From positions 11,367 through 75,366 of IMG/VR virus record IMGVR_UViG_3300038673_000745: a DNA stretch of 64,000 bases; one strand, written 5' to 3'. Under the pieces are notes generated by a model that saw only the letters and a list, made by a program, of their open reading frames with translations, was not told where the DNA came from and ran no database searches. Source of the DNA: a virus. This document shows positions 3,493-38,849 of the stretch, in pieces. How positions within the stretch are numbered: position 1 is the first letter of the stretch; each line of letters opens with the position of its first letter. Made by a program: the position numbers and the translations under genes.

Positions 3493-4197
3493 ATGTATTG
3501 TATCCGGGAAGATACCATCGCTGCAGCTCACTATCGTGTGATCCATTTCCTGAACGCGTTGCCGGAGATGGATATCACTGAAGATAATGAATTTGTGAAA
3601 CAATATCCAGAACCAATATCAATTCATATCAACTATCCTCAAGTGAATCCTCAGATTGTACCAGGATCACTCTTCGGTCCACAATTCCAGAACGAGTACG
3701 TCAGAAAAGTCTTAAAAATTACTCCGCTCCGGAACGATGGAACAGACCCGACGTATACCTATGGGAACCGACTCCGGGCATACCCTCAATCCGGATTCTG
3801 GGAAAAAATAAAAAAATGGTTCGGGTTCACATCCGGACTGGATCAACTTTGTCAAGTAATACAACGGTTGGAGGACTCACCAAACACCCGGCGGGCAGTT
3901 ATGTGTCTCTGGGATCCTGAAATAGATTCACAGTCAAATGAACCTCCTTGCATGAATCTTATCCAGGTCTGTATACATAATGATTCGGTGAACCTAGTCT
4001 GCTTTTTTCGAAGTAATGATATGCTATCCGCGTATGGAATGAACACCTATGCAATCGCTCAACTGCAAAAACACCTCGCAGATGAGTTAGATTATGAATG
4101 CGGATGGATTGAGACGATATCAAACAATCCTCATATGTATCCAACTCGGGATGCATACGAACTAAAACATATTCTGAAGGCAAATGTCAAAGTATAG
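3493..4197 (+). CDS. thyA: thymidylate synthase, archaeal ThyA type
   Basis: YTYGNRLR, SPNTRRAV..LWDP, catalytic PPC, FRSND..SAYGMN (dUMP-specifying Asn), SNNPHMY. Confidence 0.88.
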   Translation: MYCIREDTIAAAHYRVIHFLNALPEMDITEDNEFVKQYPEPISIHINYPQVNPQIVPGSLFGPQFQNEYVRKVLKITPLRNDGTDPTYTYGNRLRAYPQSGFWEKIKKWFGFTSGLDQLCQVIQRLEDSPNTRRAVMCLWDPEIDSQSNEPPCMNLIQVCIHNDSVNLVCFFRSNDMLSAYGMNTYAIAQLQKHLADELDYECGWIETISNNPHMYPTRDAYELKHILKANVKV

Positions 4198-5622: not shown

Positions 5623-7161
5623 ATGGGTATCTATTTGGATCTCCTTCGTCTCAGGGATATATCAGCCCACAATTCGCTTGGAATAATCAGAAAAGGCAAG
5701 AAATACATTAAACCGGGTCAGAAGGCACCAAAAGGCGTTCAGTTACACAAAGGACCGAAAGGCGGGACATATTACATTATCGAAGACAAACACACGAAAT
5801 TTGCTGGAAAACATCATGAGCTGGTCCGGAGTAAGGGTGTGACTAAAGATCAATGGGATGAAATCCGGCAGAAATTAATGAGTGAAGGAGCGGAATCAGT
5901 AGAGTTTCTCCCACAACCAGAATACGGTGGAATCAAGGGAAAGAAACTATACAATATCTACGTGAGGCGGGGAGATACTGATGAGAAGATTGAGAGTAAG
6001 ATAAAGGTCGATAAAGATAAATTTGCACAACGTAAAAAGAAGGCTATGAAGAAGGATCTTGAAAAGTTCCTGGCAACAAATCCTGATGGGTTAGAGGATT
6101 CAATTAAGGCCAGGACAAAAGAACCTGAATGGGAATTATCTGAAGATATTTTCACTAATAGAAAGAAAGCATGGGATGATGAACAATTTTATCAAAATAA
6201 AGGATATAAAACAAAGATAATCGAAGGAAAGAACGAAAATGGGAAAAGAACCTATCAGGTACATTATCAGAAACCGGCTCCAGCTACTAATGTAAAGGAT
6301 TATCTGGTCCAAATAGGTGGAAAATATTGGAGATCTAATGATGGATCTAAAGAGCGGGTATATATCCCTCATGAAACGTTTCATACAATGATAGGGCTCG
6401 AATTGCAGTTTTTTGGCACTGGTAATATTAGTTCAGCTAAATTGAAAGGCAAACCTATCAGTAATAACAAAGCGAGGAATATCCATTTTGGAATTAATCC
6501 CTATTATGATTTAAATGAAAATAAATTTTCAGGGGTTAATCCGGATTGGGTTGATGAATTAAATACTCATCTGGAACCATATGAAAAATATACTCCATCA
6601 AAGGCAAATGCTCATAAAGAAGCCAAAAAACCAATATCTATGGGATGGGTGAAAGAACTTGCAGAAGGTGAATCGCCTATGGGGAAGGATGCTAATCGGT
6701 TAGAGTTTCAGAACTATGCAACAAATATCCATGATTCACTAATGCTTCATACCTATAAGAAAGAGTCAGAAATTCCCGCACAATATCATATCAAACCGGG
6801 ATATGATACCGGAAAGATACAAGTATATAATTCCTTTAGTATCAAGGATAAACTAAAATCGAAAGGATTTAAGTGGGATCCATATACAAAATTGTGGGAG
6901 AAATCGGTGAAAGTTTCGGACATACAGAACGAATCCAAGTTTTTATCAGAGTCAGGGGTGACTTCATTCAGGTTTGACAATGCTCCGGATGTACGGAATT
7001 TTATTATTAATGAGCTAAAACCGGAAGGAGGATCCTGGGGTAAATTCTATGATAAGCACCAGGAACAGGCAATGGACAAATTAAATGAGCAGGTTGAATC
7101 AATTAAGAAGAAGTTTGGACTGTTCCAAAAGAATTCAGAGAGAAGAACACGAACCCCATGA
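5623..7161 (+). CDS. leader-bearing putative capsid cargo protein (type A), displaced into the replication region
   Basis: Leader ending IIRK|G, then KKYIKPG..PKGVQLHKGPKGGTYY; first ~120 aa nearly identical to 24145..26166. Confidence 0.75.
   Translation: MGIYLDLLRLRDISAHNSLGIIRKGKKYIKPGQKAPKGVQLHKGPKGGTYYIIEDKHTKFAGKHHELVRSKGVTKDQWDEIRQKLMSEGAESVEFLPQPEYGGIKGKKLYNIYVRRGDTDEKIESKIKVDKDKFAQRKKKAMKKDLEKFLATNPDGLEDSIKARTKEPEWELSEDIFTNRKKAWDDEQFYQNKGYKTKIIEGKNENGKRTYQVHYQKPAPATNVKDYLVQIGGKYWRSNDGSKERVYIPHETFHTMIGLELQFFGTGNISSAKLKGKPISNNKARNIHFGINPYYDLNENKFSGVNPDWVDELNTHLEPYEKYTPSKANAHKEAKKPISMGWVKELAEGESPMGKDANRLEFQNYATNIHDSLMLHTYKKESEIPAQYHIKPGYDTGKIQVYNSFSIKDKLKSKGFKWDPYTKLWEKSVKVSDIQNESKFLSESGVTSFRFDNAPDVRNFIINELKPEGGSWGKFYDKHQEQAMDKLNEQVESIKKKFGLFQKNSERRTRTP
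5644..5903 (+). repeat. 260-bp perfect direct repeat, copy 1 (copy 2 at 24166..24425)
   Basis: Base-by-base visual comparison shows identity; offset 18522 nt equals the offset between the two start codons. Confidence 0.92.
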
Positions 7162-7282: not shown

Positions 7283-7331
7283 GCATAACTTTTTTATATT
7301 TATATGAATAATATATGAATGGCGAGTTGAT

Positions 7332-8117: not shown

Positions 8118-8438
8118 ATGACAAATTGTATTTTTTGTGGTCATCCGGTTATTCTGGGAAACATTCAAAAATATTCCGGTGGATTTTTCCGGCAGACATT
8201 TATTTGCCGTTCATGTGGTCGTCAGTATGTGGATGGCCCGGCATTCACAGATAAACCCGGAGATAGACGGATAAATCCGATGGAGCGACCTCCCTGCCCT
8301 CGGTGTGGATGTGAAGACACTATGTTTAACGAGTGGTTGGAGACTAAAACTCGCGTGAAACCACGGTTTAGATGTCATGGGTGTGGTCGGTCATTTACAG
8401 TAGGCGGGAAAGTAAACACTCATAAAAAATACGACTAA
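8118..8438 (+). CDS. double zinc-ribbon protein (IS1 InsA-like)
   Basis: CIFCG...CRSCGRQY and CPRCG...CHGCGRSF. Confidence 0.65.
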   Translation: MTNCIFCGHPVILGNIQKYSGGFFRQTFICRSCGRQYVDGPAFTDKPGDRRINPMERPPCPRCGCEDTMFNEWLETKTRVKPRFRCHGCGRSFTVGGKVNTHKKYD

Positions 8439-8490
8439 CCTTCTTTTTTCAATTCCTGTATATCTTTCTTCGTGCCGATACTAATTCTCA

Positions 8491-9126
8491 ATGAATATAG
8501 ATGGATCGGAGCATTATCCTCCAATTACAGTTGCGACATCTGTTAACATCCCAGAAGCAGAAGTGATTAAGCGAGCCGGAACCGGAGAATTCCCTGGTAA
8601 AAAAACACCAACCGGGTATTGGTTTAGTGCAAATCATATTTCTGCCATTCGGGCAATAGTCCATCCAAATAAGGATGTAAAGAATACGACATCTGTTCAA
8701 AACACGGCTACAATCAGCGCAGAAGAAGCCGCTGAAAGGACCGGATACAAAGCATCAACTCTCCGGACCTATGTCGATGCACACAAAATCGAAGGCCAAT
8801 TTATCGATCACAAACTGTTTTTCACTGAAGAGCAGGTCAAAAAGATTGAAGAAATGAAAAAGAAACCAGAAAAATCTTCAACCGATATTCAAAATCCCTC
8901 ACTAAAACCAGGACTTCATGAAACTCAAGAATCCGTTAAGAAATCACGAGTCCGGTCCTATCCTCGTGGGAAAACTGTAGAACTCCCGAATGAGTTAAAG
9001 CGGGAATATGAATGTGCAAAACGGATTGCAAAAGCGAGAGATGAACCGGTTATCGTATATCTGCTGAAACAGGCAAAGTCAGATATCGACAAGAAAAAGG
9101 AATTGATCAAAACCCTGAGGGAATAA
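8491..9126 (+). CDS. excisionase/MerR-like HTH DNA-binding protein
   Basis: ISAEEAAERTGYKASTLRTYV...IEG...LFFTEEQV; promoter motif upstream. Confidence 0.55.
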   Translation: MNIDGSEHYPPITVATSVNIPEAEVIKRAGTGEFPGKKTPTGYWFSANHISAIRAIVHPNKDVKNTTSVQNTATISAEEAAERTGYKASTLRTYVDAHKIEGQFIDHKLFFTEEQVKKIEEMKKKPEKSSTDIQNPSLKPGLHETQESVKKSRVRSYPRGKTVELPNELKREYECAKRIAKARDEPVIVYLLKQAKSDIDKKKELIKTLRE

Positions 9127-9338
9127 TGTTTACGGTCTCCGGCCACGTTCATTTCTCCGGTAAAATGAAAGGAGAGCGGGCAGATATCGAACCCACTTGT
9201 CAGGACATGCTTGCAGATATCGCAACCTATGCTCAAGAGAAATATCCAGGGTTCGTCTGGGATGCGTCTCCGATCTCTCTCTGGACAAAAGTGTCAAAAC
9301 TGGTAAAAAACAATGGTGCTCGTCGATCATCAGATTAA
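9126..9338 (+). CDS. hypothetical protein
   Basis: 70-aa coupled ORF. Confidence 0.5.
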   Translation: MFTVSGHVHFSGKMKGERADIEPTCQDMLADIATYAQEKYPGFVWDASPISLWTKVSKLVKNNGARRSSD

Positions 9339-9864
9339 AGCAGCGATCTTGAATGAGGTTTTAGGAGTCGAACCGTACCGGGAAGAGTTGGTGAATCCAA
9401 ATAGCCTGGACATAACCCTCTCAAAAAAGTTTAGTTTTCAAAAAGGGTATGAAAAAACCCCTATCAATCCATACAACGAACGTGATGTTACAATCGGATG
9501 GGTAGAACAAACCGGACCGGTTATCATCTCACCCGGTCAATTAATACTTGGATCCACGGTTGAATATATCTCTCTTCCCCGGACCATCTGCGCAGAACTG
9601 AACGGTAAGTCATCGTTAGCACGGTTAGGATTACAGAACCATCAGACCGGCGGATGGATAGATTGCGGGTTTTCAGGACAAATTACTCTTGAACTCTTTA
9701 ACGCAGGGAAAAGACCCATTGTACTTATTCCCAATATGCCTATCGGTCAATTGGTGTTCCATGAAACTGAAGAAGCTGAGAACGGGTATGGGGACCGGAA
9801 GAGTTCAAAGTATCAGGGACAGAAAGGACCGGTGGGATCAAGATACTATCTGAACAAACTCTAA
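9313..9864 (+). CDS. dcd: dCTP deaminase
   Basis: VNPNSLDITL, GSTVEYISLP, GKSSLARLGL, GWIDCGFSGQITLEL, IGQLVF, KYQGQ. Confidence 0.93.
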   Translation: MVLVDHQIKAAILNEVLGVEPYREELVNPNSLDITLSKKFSFQKGYEKTPINPYNERDVTIGWVEQTGPVIISPGQLILGSTVEYISLPRTICAELNGKSSLARLGLQNHQTGGWIDCGFSGQITLELFNAGKRPIVLIPNMPIGQLVFHETEEAENGYGDRKSSKYQGQKGPVGSRYYLNKL

Positions 9865-9906: not shown

Positions 9907-10044
9907 ATGACAGAAGAGATAAAAACGTACGGTCCGGATGATTTTGACCAGGCGTTTAAAAGAAAAAAACGTCGGAATCAACGAAAACATCAACAAGCGA
10001 GAGCAGAACAGGAAGAGAGGTGTCCGTTCAATGAAGACGAATAA
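9907..10044 (+). CDS. small basic protein (45 aa, not in ORF track)
   Basis: MTEEIKTYGPDDFDQAFKRKKRRNQRKH...; ATG lies 30 nt after the promoter motif. Confidence 0.5.
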   Translation: MTEEIKTYGPDDFDQAFKRKKRRNQRKHQQARAEQEERCPFNEDE

Positions 10045-10828
10045 TTATCTCATTGCAACAGGGCTTGTTCTGATTCTCATCGCCCTCATTCTATCTCATG
10101 TAGTAAACGCAGACATTTACGAATCTCAGGGATATTCAAACGGAGGAGATTCGTCCGGTTGTTTTCAGCAATGGGGTACAACCGGGTCGAACATAATGAA
10201 GTTTGGAACTGTCAACGATTCGGAGAATTACCATGCGGCATCATACCAGTTTACAACGTTAGGGAAATCAGGGTATGCAAAGCAAATTACCTCTGGAGAG
10301 ACATTTTCTAGCACGATGGATATATCTGCATCACACATGCTCAATTATTTTGAGACCGGTGCAATGGCAGATTACCAGGCAAATGTTCCGGATAGTATAT
10401 GTGACACTGATCTTGGAGATATCGGGACCGGTCCATCCGGGAAATATCCGTCGTCCCAATCGGTTGATTATCTAACGGGAATCATGGCAACAAATTCGTC
10501 CCGGTATCAGTCATCAATAGAAATTGCAGGAACCACGCTCACCCACGATATAACAGCAACCTCAAAAGATGGATATTATTACAACGATCTGAAAGGATAT
10601 CTGAAAGCAGGGTTCGATAAAAATTCATCAGATTTAAGTCTTGCATACGGCGTCCATGATCATACCGTTACCCGGTCCAACGAAACCGCACCGCTCAATG
10701 TCGGATTTGACTATTCATGGAACGGATATGAAATCGTAGAACCGGAAGAAGAGACATACACTGTCTCTTCAATATCATCAGAGAGATTAGAAAAATTCGT
10801 GAATGCGACAAACACAACGGCTGAATAG
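10031..10828 (+). CDS. exported or membrane-anchored protein
   Basis: Start re-assigned to MKTNNYLIATGLVLILIALILSHVVNA (signal peptide/TM); S/T/G-rich beta-type body. Confidence 0.65.
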   Translation: MKTNNYLIATGLVLILIALILSHVVNADIYESQGYSNGGDSSGCFQQWGTTGSNIMKFGTVNDSENYHAASYQFTTLGKSGYAKQITSGETFSSTMDISASHMLNYFETGAMADYQANVPDSICDTDLGDIGTGPSGKYPSSQSVDYLTGIMATNSSRYQSSIEIAGTTLTHDITATSKDGYYYNDLKGYLKAGFDKNSSDLSLAYGVHDHTVTRSNETAPLNVGFDYSWNGYEIVEPEEETYTVSSISSERLEKFVNATNTTAE

Positions 10829-10866
10829 AATTCCCGTTTATCTTCTCTCCCACCCATCTCTTTTGC

Positions 10867-11298
10867 ATGGAATCATTGTTACCCTTCGGCATTGATCCAG
10901 CATGGATAGGAATGATCATCGCCTGGGTAGTAGCAGGGGTATTATATCTAAAACTCCGGTCTGTCGTCAACATATCCCGGAACTATGCCCGTATGGTTGT
11001 ATCTCGAGCTAGGATAATGGCCGATGGTCAGATAATCGTAACCGAACCCGATGTTCCGGAATTCGTAAAGGCTACATTTGAGTTCATGGATGAGTTAGAA
11101 GCTGCTCTTTCCAGAATATTTGGGTATCTGGCTAACCATCCATCAACCGGGTGGATTAAAGGATATGAACCGGGTATTCAGGCGGTAGTGAAAGCAGCGA
11201 CACAGGAACTTGCTTCAACTGCTCCTCCGGGACCGTATGAAGTAAAAACAGTAACGCCAGACGAACCGCAGACCGAGACAGTCGGTCAACCAGGATAA
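10867..11298 (+). CDS. N-terminal TM protein (holin-like candidate)
   Basis: WIGMIIAWVVAGVLYL hydrophobic segment; promoter motif 30 nt upstream. Confidence 0.5.
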   Translation: MESLLPFGIDPAWIGMIIAWVVAGVLYLKLRSVVNISRNYARMVVSRARIMADGQIIVTEPDVPEFVKATFEFMDELEAALSRIFGYLANHPSTGWIKGYEPGIQAVVKAATQELASTAPPGPYEVKTVTPDEPQTETVGQPG

Positions 11299-11302
11299 TC
11301 AC

Positions 11303-11743
11303 ATGCCAGTCATTAACATAGTTGGTATCGGACCCTCTGAACAGGAAGCAGCCTTACGGCCAAAACCGGTCCTTTCAACAGATATTCAGACTCTCAATTG
11401 CACAACAAATGGAAAAATCTTCGTAGGAATAGAAATCCTCAAGAACGGGGCTCAATTTGCTCTTCAGATGCTCTTCGACGGAAAACCGGTTGCAATCAAA
11501 GATAATGAAAAAGGTATGAACTCAACCGGAGTGTATACGTCCGGACGATATGAGTCCTATGCAGTCGATCTTCCTTCACGACTGCTCACCGTGCAGAAAG
11601 AACCTCATACGGTCCAATTCCTTATTGGCAAGTATGACCAGGAACAATTCATCGAATCAGGCAGATCTCGGATGTTTGAGATATATGTGACTGGAGAAAC
11701 ACCAAAAATCGATCCAAAGGTAAAGCCAGAGGACCGGGATTAA
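11303..11743 (+). CDS. hypothetical protein
   Basis: 146-aa ORF. Confidence 0.6.
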   Translation: MPVINIVGIGPSEQEAALRPKPVLSTDIQTLNCTTNGKIFVGIEILKNGAQFALQMLFDGKPVAIKDNEKGMNSTGVYTSGRYESYAVDLPSRLLTVQKEPHTVQFLIGKYDQEQFIESGRSRMFEIYVTGETPKIDPKVKPEDRD

Positions 11744-11753
11744 ATTATTTTTT

Positions 11754-11826
11754 GGGCGGGTAGCTCTAACGGCAGAGCGTCCGGTTTGCATCCGGAAGGC
11801 TCCGGGTTCAACTCCCGGTCTGTCCA
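11754..11826 (+). tRNA. tRNA-Ala(UGC)
   Basis: Full cloverleaf: acceptor GGGCGGG/TCTGTCC with G3:U70, D arm GCTC/GAGC, anticodon arm TCCGG-TTTGCAT-CCGGA, T arm CCGGG-TTCAACT-CCCGG, discriminator A, no encoded CCA. Confidence 0.93.
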
Positions 11827-11969
11827 TTCCCTCACTCGCTTCAATGGGTGAGGTGTAGAGGGGTTATGATCTAGTAGATTCGCAACTCTGGAACACACCT
11901 ACCGAATGCGGTAAACCCAGGGCCTTGACGGGTAATGGAACGGTGATGTACCGTTATCAGAATACATCA

Positions 11970-12012
11970 ACTCCTTTCAGGATAACAAACGGTTCAATTC
12001 CGTAAAGGAGCA
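11970..12012 (+). ncRNA. tRNA minihelix-like element (acceptor stem plus T arm only)
   Basis: CTCCTTT/AAAGGAG stem stacked on ACGG-TTCAATT-CCGT; an 11-nt linker replaces the D and anticodon arms. Confidence 0.55.
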
Positions 12013-12107
12013 TCCCATAGGGTAATTCCTATGGAGAAGTATGTGTCGCGAAATACGTGTTGGCAATCCGGAATTAGACGGATAAAACAGATCTCATTCT
12101 GTTTTGA

Positions 12108-12173
12108 ACTCCTGTGGTGTAGTGGTCAATCATACTGGGCCCGGTGACACCGGTTCGATTCCGGTCAGGAGTA
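12108..12173 (+). ncRNA. tRNA-Gln-like RNA lacking the anticodon loop
   Basis: ACTCCTG/CAGGAGT acceptor (A1:U72), D arm GTGT-AGTGGTCAATC-ATAC, CTGGG directly joined to CCCGG, T arm ACCGG-TTCGATT-CCGGT; 66 nt. Confidence 0.75.
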
Positions 12174-12287
12174 TCTCCCCTAATGACCTTCCGTGGTAAT
12201 GGCCGAGCGAAGGGGAGAACAATAATCCTCGGATCATCAGCGAATGCGGTTCATTACCGCATCCGGGGTATTCTCACAGGTGATACT

Positions 12288-15200
12288 TTGCAGAACGATT
12301 ATCAGCGGATGTTACAGGATATTCTTGAGGACCGTTATTTACAACCGGGTGAAAAAACCTTTTCTGACGTTACAACTCGTGTATCCTCATTTCTAAAGAC
12401 GAATGATAAAGACCTCATGGATTCCGGAACCTTCCTTTACAACTCTCCGGCGCTCATGAATGCAGGAACCGCTCATCCTATGATGTCTGCCTGTTTCGTT
12501 TTGCCTATTAACGATTCACTAGATGAGATTTATGACACATTAAAACGAGCAGCGAAGATCTTTAAGGTTGGTGGGGGAGTCGGAATCAATTTTTCTCCAC
12601 TCCGGCCAAAAGGAGCCCCCGTGAAAGGAACCGGGGGCACTTCATCCGGGGCAATTGCATTTATTGAAAATTTTAATTCAATGGTGAAAACCGTAGAATC
12701 GGGAGGAAGACGACGGGGAGCTGCAATTGCAATCCTAAATGATGACCATCCGGACATAATAGATTTTGTCAAAGCAAAATCCGATAATGAATCAGATCTG
12801 AAGAATTTTAATCTATCCGTTCTCATTACAGATAAATTCCTAGAAGCGGTTCAGAATGATGCAATGTGGGAATTGCGATGGAATGATCGCATATTCAAAA
12901 CAATTCCGGCGAAAGAATTGTTTAATCTTATTATCGACGGGATGTATTCGAAAGGTGAACCCGGAATTCTCTTTTTTGAGAATGCGAATCGTTTTAACCC
13001 GATGAAAGAGGTATTAGGAGATATTTACACCTGCAATCCTTGTTTGCATGAAGATTCATTATTATTTACAACTGACGGACTTCAAAAGATATCTCAATGT
13101 AATCATAATATTTGGAATGGATCAGGATATTCTCAATCGAACACTTGGAGTAATGGAATAAAGGAAACGATCAGGATCACTACGAAATCGGGATTTGAAT
13201 GGATTACTACACCAGACCACAGATTCTTATTAAAAGATGGAGATTGGTGTGAGGCTCAATATCTGATGGATAAGAAGATCGCGTTTCAAGTGAGAGAATA
13301 TGATTGGGTGGGGATTAATCCCCATCCTGATTGTGATTATGAAATCCTTGGATTTGAATTTGGGGATGGTTCGTATCATAAAGCCTCTAAACGGATGAAA
13401 TATATCTATGCTACTCCGGGAAAAGATGAAGAGGTTGTAGCAAAACTGGAAACAGTGTTTAATGGTTCATTCTATTTGGATTGTGGAAGTAGATATCTAA
13501 TAAACATTCCATTTGGGACAATTTATACAGATGCATTTATTGGAACTTTGCCAGAACGGATGATTCCTGATTGGATATTATCTCTCCCAAAAGAACAGAT
13601 GAGATCATTCCTCAAAGGATTGTTTAGTGCAAATGGAACTAATCTAAAGAAATATTTTAAATTGCAATTAGTTTCTTCAAATAAAGAGATGCTTCAACAA
13701 GTTCAACAAATGCTTTTACTATTTGGGATAAAAGGGAAACTTTGGTGGCATAATAGAGAAGTGATTCAAACCTTTTACAATGGTGATTATACCTGTAAAC
13801 AATCCTGGCACATTGTAATCAGTGGGGAATCTTATGATAAGTTCTTTGAAACAATTGGATTCATTCAATCATATAAGATGGAACGAATCCCCGGCAGAAT
13901 GTTCAAACCTGAAAAGAATTTTGAAGTAGTATGTGATATTTCAGATGCAGGAATGACAGAAGTATGGGATTTTAATGAGCCTATCAATCACTATGCTATC
14001 TGTTCTGGAGCATTTGTTCATAATTGCGGTGAAATTTTAGCCTGTGTTAATCCTAAAACCGGAGGGGGAGAGAGATGTATTCTAGGTTCTGCAAATCTCT
14101 CTCATTTTGGAACGGTTCAGGAATTTGATATAAATCGGTTTAAAGAAGTTGTTAGGAGCGGAGTTATCGGATTAAATGAAATTGTAGACAAAGATGAACT
14201 TCCACTACCTGAAGTGGCTGAATGTGCAATGCTAGGTAAAAAGATCGGGTTTGGAATTATGGGGTTTGCTGATCTTCTGGTCAAGTCAGGGATTCCATAC
14301 AATTCTGACGATGCCATTCTTGCAATTGAGAAAATAGGGTTTCATCTGAAACAGCAGGCGATTGACACATCAATTGAAGTTGGTTCAATAAAAGGACCGT
14401 ATAAAGAAGGACAATTGATGAGAAATGCCTGTGTCCTCTCTATTGCTCCAACTGGAACACTATCAATCCTCGCTAACTGTTCTTCTGGAATCGAACCGGT
14501 ATACAAATGGGTGTATGACAGAGTCGTGTGCTTGAAAACAGGAGATACGGTGTATAGGATCATTCACCCACTCTATGAAAAACTCCTGGATGAACATTAC
14601 TCAGATCACAAAGAAGAATTGTTAGAGTATGCATACACTCACGGGTCAATCCAGAATGCACCATACATCAGTAAAGAACATAAGAGAATCTATGTTGTTG
14701 CATCAGATATTGAGCCCGGCTGGCAGATACATCACCAGGCAACATGGCAGAAATATGTTGACCAGAGTATCAGCAAAACCTGTAATGTATCATCTGATAC
14801 TACAAAAGAAGAGATCTCACAACTTGTTTTCAAAGCTCATGCAGCAGGTATCAAAGGGTTTACCCTCCTTCGTGAATGGTCGCGGAATGATGCGGTAATG
14901 AAAGCCGGTAAAGAAACCCACAAAAACGGAACCGCGAAACGGAAGAAAGAGTTAACCGGTAAAACCATGCAGTATTCATCCGGTTGCGGAACGCTGTATA
15001 TCACGGTTAATTTCGATGAGAACGGTAAGATAATCGAGGTATTAGCAAACCCGAACGGTGGAGGATGTAACGCATCCATAGAGGCTATGTGCAGGCTCGC
15101 GTCCGTCGCTCTCCGGAACAACCATCCGATAACGGATATCATCCGGCAGCTCAGGAAAGTGAATCCATGTGTAGCAGCCGGGAAGAATAAACAGGCTGAA

Positions 15201-15371
15201 GGGAAATCGTGTGCGGATATTATTGGCAGGTGCCTGGCAGAACATCTCAAGGACCAGGGAAAACCGGAGGTGAATACATCAGGACCGGCATGTCCTGAAT
15301 GTGGTGCTCCGGTGAACTTTGCTGACGGGTGCAGGCGGTGTACTGAATGTTCATGGAGCAAGTGCGGGTGA
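12288..15371 (+). CDS. nrdJ: class II (adenosylcobalamin-dependent) ribonucleotide reductase with intein, TSCPD-like and Zn-ribbon C-terminus
   Basis: NSPALMNAG, SACFV, GGGVG.NFS.LRPKG, GGRRRGA, NP|CGE, SIAPTGT, DQSISKTCN; start re-assigned to TTG 12288 after the AGGTGA RBS. Confidence 0.93.
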   Translation: MQNDYQRMLQDILEDRYLQPGEKTFSDVTTRVSSFLKTNDKDLMDSGTFLYNSPALMNAGTAHPMMSACFVLPINDSLDEIYDTLKRAAKIFKVGGGVGINFSPLRPKGAPVKGTGGTSSGAIAFIENFNSMVKTVESGGRRRGAAIAILNDDHPDIIDFVKAKSDNESDLKNFNLSVLITDKFLEAVQNDAMWELRWNDRIFKTIPAKELFNLIIDGMYSKGEPGILFFENANRFNPMKEVLGDIYTCNPCLHEDSLLFTTDGLQKISQCNHNIWNGSGYSQSNTWSNGIKETIRITTKSGFEWITTPDHRFLLKDGDWCEAQYLMDKKIAFQVREYDWVGINPHPDCDYEILGFEFGDGSYHKASKRMKYIYATPGKDEEVVAKLETVFNGSFYLDCGSRYLINIPFGTIYTDAFIGTLPERMIPDWILSLPKEQMRSFLKGLFSANGTNLKKYFKLQLVSSNKEMLQQVQQMLLLFGIKGKLWWHNREVIQTFYNGDYTCKQSWHIVISGESYDKFFETIGFIQSYKMERIPGRMFKPEKNFEVVCDISDAGMTEVWDFNEPINHYAICSGAFVHNCGEILACVNPKTGGGERCILGSANLSHFGTVQEFDINRFKEVVRSGVIGLNEIVDKDELPLPEVAECAMLGKKIGFGIMGFADLLVKSGIPYNSDDAILAIEKIGFHLKQQAIDTSIEVGSIKGPYKEGQLMRNACVLSIAPTGTLSILANCSSGIEPVYKWVYDRVVCLKTGDTVYRIIHPLYEKLLDEHYSDHKEELLEYAYTHGSIQNAPYISKEHKRIYVVASDIEPGWQIHHQATWQKYVDQSISKTCNVSSDTTKEEISQLVFKAHAAGIKGFTLLREWSRNDAVMKAGKETHKNGTAKRKKELTGKTMQYSSGCGTLYITVNFDENGKIIEVLANPNGGGCNASIEAMCRLASVALRNNHPITDIIRQLRKVNPCVAAGKNKQAEGKSCADIIGRCLAEHLKDQGKPEVNTSGPACPECGAPVNFADGCRRCTECSWSKCG
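13041..14024 (+). mobile_element. intein (328 aa) with LAGLIDADG homing endonuclease
   Basis: Starts CLHEDSL, ends AFVHN with +1 Cys; LGFEFGDGS and FLKGLFSANG motifs; splits the NPCGE motif. Confidence 0.92.
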
Positions 15372-21328: not shown

Positions 21329-21802
21329 ATGGCAAGGCCGAAAAATATAATCTTGGTTCTAGAATTGGAGCGAGATGCGCATAGATTACGGAACAAAGGT
21401 TTGTCGATACGGAAGATAGCCGAAGCACTCACACAGAAAGTTGGTACGAAGATTAATCCTCAGTCGGTCCAGCGTTATTTTGACTCATTCAAAGAGAAAC
21501 CTGAAGTTAAGGAGATCGAGGTACAGGTCCCAACACCTGAAGCTCAAGTCGCACTTGAAATCATCCAGGAACGGGTTACAACTCTCAAAGAAGTGGATGA
21601 GAAGATCCAGAAACTTGATCGGGTGGTAGAATTCGCTGAGAAGGCCGGAGACCACCACTTACTCATCAAAGCTGCAAAAGAACAGGTCAGATACTATGAT
21701 CTGAAAGCAAAACTCACCGGTGACATAGGACCGAACCGGGCAGCATCCGCACCGCAGAACAATATTATGATCTATATACCGGACAATGGCAGAGACAAAT
21801 GA
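21329..21802 (+). CDS. terS: terminase small subunit
   Basis: N-terminal HTH (GLSIRKIAEAL...INPQSVQRY), helical middle, C-terminal NIMIYIPDNGR; overlaps terL. Confidence 0.75.
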   Translation: MARPKNIILVLELERDAHRLRNKGLSIRKIAEALTQKVGTKINPQSVQRYFDSFKEKPEVKEIEVQVPTPEAQVALEIIQERVTTLKEVDEKIQKLDRVVEFAEKAGDHHLLIKAAKEQVRYYDLKAKLTGDIGPNRAASAPQNNIMIYIPDNGRDK

Positions 21803-23216
21803 AGAGATGAGACCTCAGCAGGGTCCACAAGAATTATTCTTAACTACTCCGGCAGATATCGCTATCTATGGAGGATCTGCAGGCTCCGGGAAATCATTTG
21901 CTATCCTCATGGAACCGCTCAGACATATTTTATCCGTAAAAGGGTATGGAGCGGTTATCTTCCGGCGGAACACAACACAGGTCAGAAACGAAGGAGGGTT
22001 ATGGGATACATCAAATGAGATCTATCCACATGTGGGAGCATTTCCCCGAGAAACTACCCTGGAATGGATCTTTCCTCCCTATGCGAATAAAGTTAAGTTT
22101 GCACATCTTGAATATGACAAAACTGTCAATGACTGGCAGGGTTCACAAATAGCCTTTATCGGATTTGACGAACTGACGCATTTTTCGGCAAAACAATTTT
22201 TTTACATGCTTTCTCGTAATCGGTCTGTATGTGGTGTGAAACCATATGTAAGAGCTACTACAAACCCGGACGCTGAATCATGGGTTGCAGAGTTTATTTC
22301 ATGGTGGATTGACCAGGATACAGGCTATCCTATCCCTGAACGAGCAGGAAAGATCCGATGGATGGCCCGTTACAACAATCAGATATTCTGGGATGATACT
22401 CCAGATCTACTCTTTAAACAGGTTCACCTGTTTGTAAAACGTGAACATTTCAGACCAAAATCGGTCACGTTCATCCCGGCAAAACTTGAGGATAACCCAA
22501 TACTCGAATCCAAAAACCCGGATTATCGAGCAAACCTTCTTGCATTAAATCTCGTGGACCGAGAACGATTGTTAGGCGGAAACTGGAAGATTAAACCAAC
22601 ATCCGGAACCATGTTCAAGCGGTCATGGTTTGAGATTGTTGATACCTATCCGACAGAATGTAATATGGTCCGAGCCTGGGATAAGGCCGCAACAGAAGGA
22701 GGAGGAGATTGGACCTGCGGAGTAAAGATAGGAGTGTATCATGGACTAACCTATATCATAGACCTGAAACGTCAACAGGGAAGCCCGTTACAGAATGAGA
22801 ACTTGATAAAACAAACCGCTGATATTGATGGAAGAAATGTTAGGATATTCATGGAACAGGAACCTGGGAGCTCAGGCGTCGATGTTATCGACCATTATTC
22901 CCGCGAAGTTCTCCGGGGCTATACCTTCAAAGGTCATAGGTCAACCGGGAGCAAGGTGGACCGGGCAAAACCGGTATCCGCTCATGTTGAAGCGGGAAAC
23001 GTAAAGATGGTAAAAGGCCACTGGAATGAAGTCATGTTAGATGAACTGGAACGGTTTCCATCCGAAGACCCAAAAGCACATGATGATATTGTTGACGCGT
23101 TAAGTTTGGCTTTTAACCGGTCAACAAGTGTGGCAGAACCCGGTGTTGTATCCCGGACGATATTGAAAAATAAATATTCTGAAGGAATGGGAAACTGGAA
23201 CAAATATAGAGGTTAG
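21786..23216 (+). CDS. terL: terminase large subunit
   Basis: Adenine-binding PQQGPQE, Walker A GGSAGSGKS, Walker B IGFDELT, RATTNP, nuclease RAWD and HDDIVDA. Confidence 0.95.
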   Translation: MAETNEEMRPQQGPQELFLTTPADIAIYGGSAGSGKSFAILMEPLRHILSVKGYGAVIFRRNTTQVRNEGGLWDTSNEIYPHVGAFPRETTLEWIFPPYANKVKFAHLEYDKTVNDWQGSQIAFIGFDELTHFSAKQFFYMLSRNRSVCGVKPYVRATTNPDAESWVAEFISWWIDQDTGYPIPERAGKIRWMARYNNQIFWDDTPDLLFKQVHLFVKREHFRPKSVTFIPAKLEDNPILESKNPDYRANLLALNLVDRERLLGGNWKIKPTSGTMFKRSWFEIVDTYPTECNMVRAWDKAATEGGGDWTCGVKIGVYHGLTYIIDLKRQQGSPLQNENLIKQTADIDGRNVRIFMEQEPGSSGVDVIDHYSREVLRGYTFKGHRSTGSKVDRAKPVSAHVEAGNVKMVKGHWNEVMLDELERFPSEDPKAHDDIVDALSLAFNRSTSVAEPGVVSRTILKNKYSEGMGNWNKYRG

Positions 23217-23219
23217 AAA

Positions 23220-23597
23220 ATGGTAAAAGAAATCTTTGAGAGAGGTAAATTTGTAGGCTATCAATGTGATGCATGTGGGAAATGCTGCAATGCCATAATG
23301 TTTAACGTAAAATGGTTTAAACAACACCGGAAGTATGCAGTAAGAGACATTGTCGGAGTGCATCAAGAACATGGGGTAATAATCCCGTTTACGGAATCGG
23401 GTAAATGCTGTTTCTTAACTGAAGATAACAGATGTGTGGTACATGATACAAAAGACGATGTGTGTAAAGATTTCTTTTGCAACGGGCACGTATCCAAACC
23501 ATTTGCAATGAATTCATGGACAAATATTCACTTTAGATCACCAAATGGGAAATTGTATGCATTGAAATACTTTCTTTACACAAAAGAAGAAGATTAA
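23220..23597 (+). CDS. YkgJ-like cysteine-cluster (Fe-S/Zn) protein
   Basis: CDACGKCC...CCFLTEDNRCVVHDTK..VCKDFFC. Confidence 0.75.
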   Translation: MVKEIFERGKFVGYQCDACGKCCNAIMFNVKWFKQHRKYAVRDIVGVHQEHGVIIPFTESGKCCFLTEDNRCVVHDTKDDVCKDFFCNGHVSKPFAMNSWTNIHFRSPNGKLYALKYFLYTKEED

Positions 23598-37520: not shown

Positions 37521-38849
37521 GTGAACTACCCCTCCCTAAAATCCTAACGGATTTTTGAGGAAGGGGCTTCCTGCTTCATGGATCGATGCTTTCTTACGTA
37601 AGTAAGGAAAGTCTGACTTAATCTCCACAGGCTCACCGGGCAGTTCCTGCCCTGTATTTTGCTTCATCAAAGCAAACATTTTGATATTTTTTGCAGCATT
37701 GACATCTCTGTCATGAACAGATCCACAATCAGGGCAGACCCATTCTCTTTCTTTCAGAGTTAATCCTTTGTTATGGTATCCACACTTGCTGCATATTTTA
37801 GATGACGGATCAAACCTACCGACAGTTAACAAGGTCTTCCCGAACTTCTCACATTTGTATGTGAGCATAGATCGGAACTCTGACCAAGAAGCATCTGCAA
37901 TATGTTTAGCCAGTTTATGATTCTTTAGCATACCTGATACATTCAGATCTTCAATTGCAATTGCTTGGTTCTCGCTAACAAGTTTAAAAGAAAGTTTGTG
38001 CAAGAAGTCTGATCTCTGGTTTGCTATGTCCTCATGACACTTTGCTAACTTGCTGATTGCTTTTTTACGGTTGTTAGATCCTTTTACTTTTCTGGATACT
38101 GACTGCTGTAGTCTCTTGAGTTTTGCTGAAGTCTTTTTTAGAACCCTTGAGTTTTCAACCTTTGTACCATCTGACAGGATTGCAAAATGAGTTAAACCTA
38201 CATCAATACCAATCGTTGTTTCAGGAGTGAACTGAACCTTTTCAGATTTTGTTTCTCTATCATCGACAAGTATGGATACATAGTAAGATCCAACCGCGTT
38301 TCGTGACACTGTACAGGTCTTAATCTCACCTGTAAAGTGTCTATGCAGTTTACATTTCACTTTACCTATCTTCGGAAGTTGAACAGATCCTTTGATCCAA
38401 TCTACTTTCACGCTTTGAGGGAACTGGAATGATTGAACTGGGTTCTTCTTTGATTTGAATCTTGGAAACCCTTTCTTTTCTCTGAAGAATTTGGTAAATG
38501 CATTATCAAGGTTGCGTGAAGCCATCTGTAATGCTTGTGAATGGACCTCAGATAGAAAAGGATACTCAAGTTTCAAAGCAGGTAACATCTTGTTTAGAGC
38601 AAAACAACTCAATGTAGATTTGTGCTCAGCGTAATGTTTAATCTTCTTCTCAAGAAACAAATTGTACACAAACCTACAAGCACCAATATGTTTCTCAATA
38701 CTCTCTTTCTGAATAGTATTGGGATACAACCTATACTTGTAGGCTTGTAACATGGGTATCTATTTATACTTACAGATATTTATATTTATGTATAAGCAGC
38801 ATTCATCTCCTCCCTGATACCGAGGAAGGAGTCTTCTGCTGCATTTCAG
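37521..38849 (-). mobile_element. IS200/IS605-family TnpB-only element (IS1341-like)
   Basis: Right end ...GTAGTTCAC, subterminal hairpins at both ends, TTTAT target motif at the left end, no target duplication; exact removal restores the host ORF. Confidence 0.88.
37536..38753 (-). CDS. tnpB: RNA-guided endonuclease TnpB
   Basis: [16 protein letters not shown], Ruv[24 protein letters not shown]...[16 protein letters not shown]. Confidence 0.96.

Follow-up and report, generated by a model that had tools for sequence, protein, structure and literature searches.

What becomes of a tRNA gene in a virus genome when the loop that should hold its anticodon is missing? The question is raised by a locus in IMG/VR virus record IMGVR_UViG_3300038673_000745, a linear record of 75,366 nt that is about 75% complete and of which positions 11,367 to 75,366 were analysed (64,000 nt, hereafter the window). 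All genes in the window are on the plus strand, and their Pfam domains include an MCM helicase, a T4-type terminase, a portal, an SU10-type capsid protein, a dCTP deaminase, a thymidylate synthase, TnpB, PKD-rich proteins, and a class II ribonucleotide reductase (RNR) with an intein. The virus is an archaeal tailed virus. To the left of the window, the remaining 11 kb of the record contain an RVT_1 reverse transcriptase of 351 aa and a tyrosine integrase of 433 aa (L152 741–3451), a pair that is possibly a diversity-generating retroelement and marks a temperate lifestyle.

A tRNA-Gln-type gene that lacks exactly its anticodon loop

The element and its parts are laid out as follows:

12108–12173, plus strand: loop-less tRNA-Gln-type gene, 66 nt, RF00005, CCA not encoded
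12117–12133, plus strand: D arm, with G18 and G19 present
12135–12139 and 12140–12144, plus strand: the two anticodon-stem strands, CTGGG and CCCGG, abutting at 12139/12140
12149–12165, plus strand: T arm, 5/5 pairs, loop TTCGATT

In a cmscan search, the RF00005 model matched 12108–12173 on the plus strand with 48.4 bits against a gathering score of 29 (E = 2.8e-7 for the window). Model positions 1 to 71 were all aligned, those of the acceptor, D, and T arms with posterior probabilities near 1, and the anticodon loop went from 7 positions in the model to 0 in the sequence, so that what should be an anticodon stem closed by a 7-nt loop with an anticodon is two strands meeting end to end. The length of 66 nt equals 73 minus 7. 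A preliminary description of this DNA had proposed a tRNA-Gln-like RNA with exactly the 7-nt anticodon loop missing, and both the alignment and the length bear this out. That description also called the remaining arms perfect, which holds for the acceptor stem (12108–12114 with 12166–12172, Watson-Crick in 7/7 pairs including A1:U72) and the T arm, but not for the D stem, where there is a G10.U25 wobble and a U13.U22 mismatch. The same D arm occurs in natural archaeal tRNA-Gln genes, and the D arm of the element is therefore the native form. U8 and G9 follow the 5′ strand of the acceptor stem, A26 follows the D arm, the variable region is the 4-nt TGAC, and A73 lies at 12173. The abutting strands read as a near-palindrome, and the deletion created a near-palindrome of 12 nt. 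ARAGORN made no call for 12108–12173 and reported only a tRNA-Ala(UGC) in the window.

A second contig (JGI 3300045917), of 75,057 nt as compared with 75,366 nt, is 100% identical across 9,063 nt including the element. The same loop-less sequence in an independently assembled contig of different length argues against a one-off assembly error.

The body is of the archaeal tRNA-Gln type

Species genomes were searched with the 20-nt D-arm motif, and tallies were made over 120 loci among the matches listed. These 120 loci are in Archaea only; A1 is the first nucleotide in 108 of them, and at least 94 belong to tRNA-Gln genes, many with introns. One of the 120 (L095, genome G010) is flagged as unpublished; it enters only these tallies and an example alignment, and none of the conclusions depends on it. 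The element has the A1:U72 pair together with the Gln-type D arm and D loop of archaeal tRNA-Gln, while the YUG anticodon of that class is missing with the loop. A BLAST search of 401 Thermoplasmatota genomes gave 126 matches to the element, nearly all of them covering both halves of the query, and these exceeded the aligned query by 7 nt; none of the genomes yielded a second loop-less copy. Among 401 Halobacteriota genomes no match reached E ≤ 1e-11. Scans of IMG/VR with a signature of D arm plus T loop yielded one intact viral tRNA-Gln only, that of L148, and no loop-less copy. In a joint alignment the intact genes compare with the element as follows:

Thermoplasmatota tRNA-Gln: 88% identity, one 7-nt gap at the loop
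Viral tRNA-Gln(UUG), L148 (IMGVR_UViG_3300011979_000236): 86% identity, one 7-nt gap at the loop
Methanoculleus tRNA-Gln: 82% identity, one 7-nt gap at the loop

Intact homologues differ from the element in length by the 7-nt loop only, and where paired positions differ (2:71, 31:39, and 49:65), the changes are compensatory or turn a wobble into a Watson-Crick pair. The D-arm tally and the identities of 82% to 88% thus bear out the archaeal tRNA-Gln body that A1:U72 and the style of the D loop had first suggested, and the assignment is confirmed. Archaeal GatDE reportedly recognises A1-U72 together with the D loop; it touches the acceptor stem, T arm, and D loop and does not read the anticodon (PMC2330236).

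A tRNA slot upstream of the ribonucleotide reductase gene

The element stands in the spacer between a conserved gene for a 146-aa protein and the RNR gene, together with other structured features:

11303–11743, plus strand: conserved 146-aa gene at the upstream edge of the tRNA slot, homologues 53–62% identical
11753–11969, plus strand: extra segment with tRNA-Ala and a block of hairpins
11754–11826, plus strand: intact tRNA-Ala(UGC), 57.7 bits with RF00005, called by ARAGORN at 11753–11827
11970–12012, plus strand: tRNA-like minihelix, an acceptor-like stem plus T arm with the 7-nt loop TTCAATT
12015–12034, plus strand: hairpin common to the window, L016, and L018
12058–12083, plus strand: conserved hairpin before the tRNA slot, with covarying stems in the window, L016, L018, L161, L180, and L181
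12084–12225, plus strand: extra segment with a hairpin (12084–12105), the loop-less tRNA, and a stem (12174–12181 with 12211–12218)
12309–15371, plus strand: class II RNR with a LAGLIDADG intein, by Pfam

The true start of the RNR gene is either ATG 12309, homologues beginning at the equivalent ATG, or the in-frame TTG 12288, 7 codons upstream of the annotated ATG, which the preceding GGTGAT (12279) suggests. About 45 nt before the ATG are nearly invariant among relatives (window 12279–12311). An extension of the RNR ORF back to 12144, over the tRNA, was rejected as spurious, since both the homologues and the gene calls have their start at the equivalent ATG. Further T-loop motifs, at 14487 and 9364 of the window, have no fold and were set aside as chance matches.

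Homologues of the 146-aa gene, each followed by a spacer, were found in L016, L018, L161–L165, G1149, G1203, and G1314. The minihelix recurs at the equivalent place in L016 (6710–6743), L018 (3127–3161), and L161 (about 6437–6481), just after the 144–146-aa gene. Its stem sequences are wholly different in each lineage, which amounts to covariation, and its fold has z-scores of −2.9 to −5.0. Conservation of the minihelix shows that selection acts on an acceptor/T-arm module in this spacer.

In the closest relatives, L016/L017 and L018 (= L021), the slot is empty. Their RNR is 74–76% identical to that of the window and free of the intein, with 692 aa (L016:6898–8976) as against 1020 aa with the intein. 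The gene order of a 143-aa gene, the 146-aa gene, spacer, and RNR is common to the window, L016/L017, and L018, and the spacer between the 146-aa gene and the RNR gene measures about 200 nt in L016/L018 versus 566 nt in the window. Inspection by eye together with alignment showed four features common to the window and L016/L018: the minihelix, the hairpins at 12015–12034 and 12058–12083, and a hairpin/leader before the RNR. The spacers of L016, L017, L018, and L021 gave no Rfam tRNA match; the loop-less element and the tRNA-Ala are absent from them. L016 and L018 form one clade, and gain and loss of the segment are for that reason equally possible. The segment 12084–12225 was also considered as a mobile element, for which there was no second copy in the 75-kb record and no similarity to the TnpB element, and as captured host DNA including its flanks, which match none of the 136 loci compared. 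A TnpB gene (IS605 OrfB) lies directly after the RNR gene in L016 (9333–10556) and L017 (3639–4862), and the TnpB gene of the window is at 37536–38753.

Further relatives of the locus were scarce. A metagenome scan with the 146-aa alignment returned L021, identical to L018 across the spacer from the 146-aa gene to the RNR, and beyond it only the distant L022 without the locus. No match came from blastn of 10800–13500 against a phage database, and nothing was found in IMG/VR by single-protein searches with the RNR and the 146-aa protein or by a scan for the conserved RNR leader. Relatives of the major capsid protein (MCP) in IMG/VR are distant (33–42% identity) and have ordinary tRNAs only; a closer MCP relative, 68% identical, is on a 50-kb contig. 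In more distant viruses with an RNR, no spacer precedes the RNR gene, and no MCP match was obtained in 261 genomes of the order that holds the best-matching Thermoplasmatota tRNA-Gln.

Relatives with an occupied slot

Large archaeal contigs and MAGs contain (pro)viral regions that encode homologues of the 146-aa protein with 57–62% identity, and six carriers of its profile were found in 401 Methanomicrobiales genomes. Because these relatives are binned in Methanomicrobiales genomes, the lineage probably infects that order. The slot is occupied in these relatives by the following genes:

L161 6754–6825, G1149 (L173/L180), and G1314 (L178/L181): tRNA(CUA), of amber-suppressor type, on a tRNA-Gln body
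L162 and L163–L165: initiator-like tRNA-Met(CAU), directly after the conserved gene

The 146-aa gene, the minihelix, and the conserved hairpin all precede the tRNA(CUA) in L161, G1149, and G1314. A tRNA begins 4–10 nt past the conserved hairpin in L161, L180, and L181; in G1149 and G1314 it is the CUA tRNA that starts these few nucleotides downstream, and in L161 it is the first of two tRNAs, the CUA tRNA being the second. The tRNA-Gln(UUG) genes of the host order start with ACTCCCG or ACCCCCG, which indicates that the CUA tRNAs derive from a host-type tRNA-Gln. Since the conserved hairpin also precedes the loop-less tRNA in the window, downstream of the 144–146-aa gene, the element is an occupant of the same conserved slot as the suppressor genes of the lineage. 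The preliminary description had pointed to related viruses as the place to look for the same deletion; such relatives exist, and none has a loop-less copy, the near ones having an empty slot and the distant ones intact tRNAs.

Two other loci were seen in passing. The slot of G1203 holds a tRNA-like gene (L182:6157–6237) with 17 nt in the anticodon loop region, which may be an intron or another non-canonical anticodon arm. Viral contig L144 (IMGVR_UViG_3300007616_000002) has at 7292–7330 the 5′ part of a tRNA up to the D arm only and then diverges, and this may be an attachment-site fragment.

TAG codons in a relative and in the window

Do the viruses with a tRNA(CUA) need it? In L161 the terminase ORF (8187–9491) grows from 377 to 434 aa when TAG is read as sense, its single TAG being codon 15. 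Between this TAG and residue 58, where the first canonical start is found, come the Walker A motif and the beginning of the Pfam domain (residue 28); a functional L161 terminase therefore needs read-through of TAG. A late ORF of 464 aa in the same provirus (10958–12352) is likewise split by a single TAG, at codon 111. These single in-frame TAGs suggest TAG read-through or recoding in an archaeal provirus. Alignment of the L161 late proteins with those of the window and of L163 was tried and gave nothing usable, as the modules differ.

The window is different in this respect. TAG terminates 6/54 plus-strand ORFs of at least 100 aa, among them the terminase, the protease/scaffold gene, 9938–10828, and 3493–4197, and no TAG-split gene was found in the window. 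The marks of a viral amber suppressor, a CUA anticodon and in-frame TAG in the virus's own genes, are present in the relatives and absent from the element and the window. With TAG a genuine stop in the window virus, an active amber suppressor would be useless or harmful there. At 21786–23597 the terminase ends in TAG and a 125-aa ORF starts one codon later in the same frame, so that read-through would fuse the two.

Predicted fold

A 5-bp anticodon stem without a loop cannot close as a hairpin. If a 3-bp remnant of the stem is kept and closed by a GGCC tetraloop, the cloverleaf is predicted at −15.9 kcal/mol. The minimum free energy (MFE) structure, at −24.5 kcal/mol, is a 3-way junction; its D region is paired to the 5′ strand of the anticodon stem, with a probability of about 0.99. 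Both folds keep the acceptor/T-arm domain. If the RNA refolds as predicted, the D-loop elbow read by GatDE would be lost. The intact tRNA of L148 is misfolded by nearest-neighbour models as well, and the MFE fold of the element is therefore only indicative. A homodimer (−9.3 kcal/mol relative to two monomers) was rejected as unspecific, because a dimer of this sort can be drawn for every hairpin RNA.

Origin and fate of the element

We think the element is probably a disabled tRNA-Gln-type gene that cannot decode, lying in a variable tRNA slot and possibly once a suppressor. A tRNA-Gln-type gene in the slot would have lost exactly the 7 nt of its anticodon loop and so been inactivated, decoding being impossible with the loop gone. 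Its ancestor would have been a tRNA-Gln or a CUA suppressor, in a virus in which TAG is a stop, and the lost anticodon may have been UUG, CUG, or CUA. Position favours a suppressor, and the sequence is closer to ordinary tRNA-Gln (82–88% identity) than to the CUA tRNAs of the relatives (71–73%), which leaves position as the only argument for suppressor ancestry. As expected of a pseudogene, the lesion abolishes decoding and the element is missing from L016, L017, L018, and L021. What speaks against a disabled gene is the neatness of the lesion: random deletion rarely excises exactly the loop while sparing both stem strands. Microhomology at the deletion is only 1 nt, and we know of no loop-specific deletion mechanism. 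No stem has decayed any further, as would be expected if the lesion is very recent or if selection still acts on the body. The preliminary description had taken this intact pairing as an argument against decay, a weak argument given that a recent deletion leaves the same picture.

Disabled or not, the RNA may still be processed. The spacer transcript would be cut at the ends of the element by RNase P and tRNase Z and might receive CCA, as the acceptor stem and T arm are untouched. Given the conserved minihelix and the t-elements of Haloferax, processing of the loop-less tRNA is reasonable to expect whether or not it is selected. The t-elements of Haloferax volcanii are tRNA-like structures that RNase P and tRNase Z cleave (PMC4326828, citing Holzle 2008 and 2012). 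They resemble the element in their non-decoding tRNA-like fold, their intact acceptor/T-arm domain, and their location between transcripts. They differ in that they are processed, whereas the element is a recent, unconserved derivative of a real tRNA gene whose processing is only expected.

Other known systems resemble the element in part. Archaeal tRNA-Gln has the same A1:U72, an identical D arm, the 4-nt variable region, the T arm, and A73, while the element is without the 7 loop nucleotides, the anticodon, and a foldable 5-bp anticodon stem. The tRNA(CUA) genes of the relatives occupy the same slot, have a Gln-type body, and share an acceptor starting with ACTCC, but they keep a loop of the CUCUAAC type, and one carrier has TAG in essential late genes. 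In bacteriophages, late genes that depend on a suppressor are documented, and the recoding of TAG by means of suppressor tRNAs is established (bioRxiv 10.1101/2021.08.26.457843; PMC9523058); in the literature searched, nothing joined suppressor tRNAs, stop-codon recoding, and archaeal viruses, and no loop-less tRNA-like gene was described in an archaeal virus. The tRNA pseudogenes of viral tRNA clusters likewise have a single disabling lesion and a patchy distribution among relatives in a variable tRNA island, though the lesion here is unusually clean, an exact excision of the loop with no other decay. Phage tRNAs that evade anticodon nucleases are also virus-encoded and altered in the anticodon loop, but their alterations are point changes and they still decode (PMC10264068), whereas the element has no loop at all.

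Alternative explanations

If the body has been kept by selection, it could have been kept for its acceptor/T-arm half, as a processing signal that works as t-element-like punctuation: RNase P and tRNase Z would part the upstream mRNA from the RNR mRNA, or set RNA ends or stability. We regard this as rather unlikely. It would account for the deletion sparing all the features that these two enzymes need, and the minihelix, which has the same half with covarying stems, opens the spacer in every relative examined; Haloferax t-elements act in this way (PMC4326828), and by eye there is no well-spaced archaeal promoter before the tRNA-Ala or the loop-less tRNA, which suggests co-transcription. The nearest relatives, however, express the same RNR without the element, the minihelix and a full tRNA-Ala already lie upstream and make a third cut site seem redundant, and two runs of T, a T6 before the spacer and a T4 directly in front of the element, are potential terminators of archaeal transcription. 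The proposal of the preliminary description, a selected non-decoding mimic that binds GatDE, GluRS, or EF-1A or that soaks up an anticodon nuclease while being itself uncleavable, is improbable. The GatDE determinants (acceptor stem, T arm, D loop, and A1-U72) are all kept (PMC2330236), phages do counter tRNA-targeting defences with altered tRNAs (PMC10264068), and precise removal of the loop with undamaged stems fits a selected body. On the other side, the element is conserved in no relative, and the closest ones do without it; the IMG/VR and Thermoplasmatota scans gave no second loop-less example; known evasion tRNAs retain a working anticodon (PMC10264068); and the predicted fold would give up the D arm and anticodon stem (0.99 for the alternative pairing). 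Nor did the scanned ORFs (≥100–120 aa) contain companion genes for RNA repair or tRNA enzymes, with no RNA ligase, RtcB, CCA enzyme, or synthetase among them. The mimic is thus left unsupported. We give similarly little credence to a broader version in which the selected product is a CCA-tailed sponge or decoy (for GatDE/transamidosome or a tRNA nuclease) or a tail-to-tail dimer, and the element is the "off" form of a toggled suppressor slot.

The remaining two explanations concern how the gap arose. An assembly or sequencing artefact, in which the real genome has a normal 7-nt loop, is very unlikely: the site is a GC-rich near-palindrome, but assemblers use k-mers far longer than a 5-bp inverted repeat and the two contigs of different length agree over 9 kb. 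Least likely of all is a scar of site-specific recombination, with the core of a tyrosine integrase at the anticodon stem-loop and abortive cleavage and repair removing the overlap. The deleted segment of 7 bp is a typical overlap length of tyrosine recombinases, the record encodes a tyrosine integrase (L152 2150–3451, outside the window and about 20 kb away), and distant relatives are proviruses adjoining tRNA genes. Against a scar, a long distance separates the site from the integrase gene, an attP site can do without the full 5′ half of a tRNA, the slot of the relatives holds ordinary tRNA genes and not att sites, and a matching attB was not found.

Significance of the slot

By itself the element is most likely a dead tRNA gene and as such ordinary. 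Programs that find tRNAs overlook it, and the exact excision of its loop is useful for testing them. What gives the element value is the slot that it marks, a variable tRNA site in methanogen viruses that holds a tRNA-Gln-derived amber suppressor, a loop-deleted copy, or nothing. In the improbable case that the element is the "off" form of a toggled slot, the lineage would toggle between TAG-recoded and standard late genes. If, under the preferred reading of a disabled gene, the element is a former suppressor, it would record the return of the virus to the standard code with the RNA-processing architecture of the locus kept.
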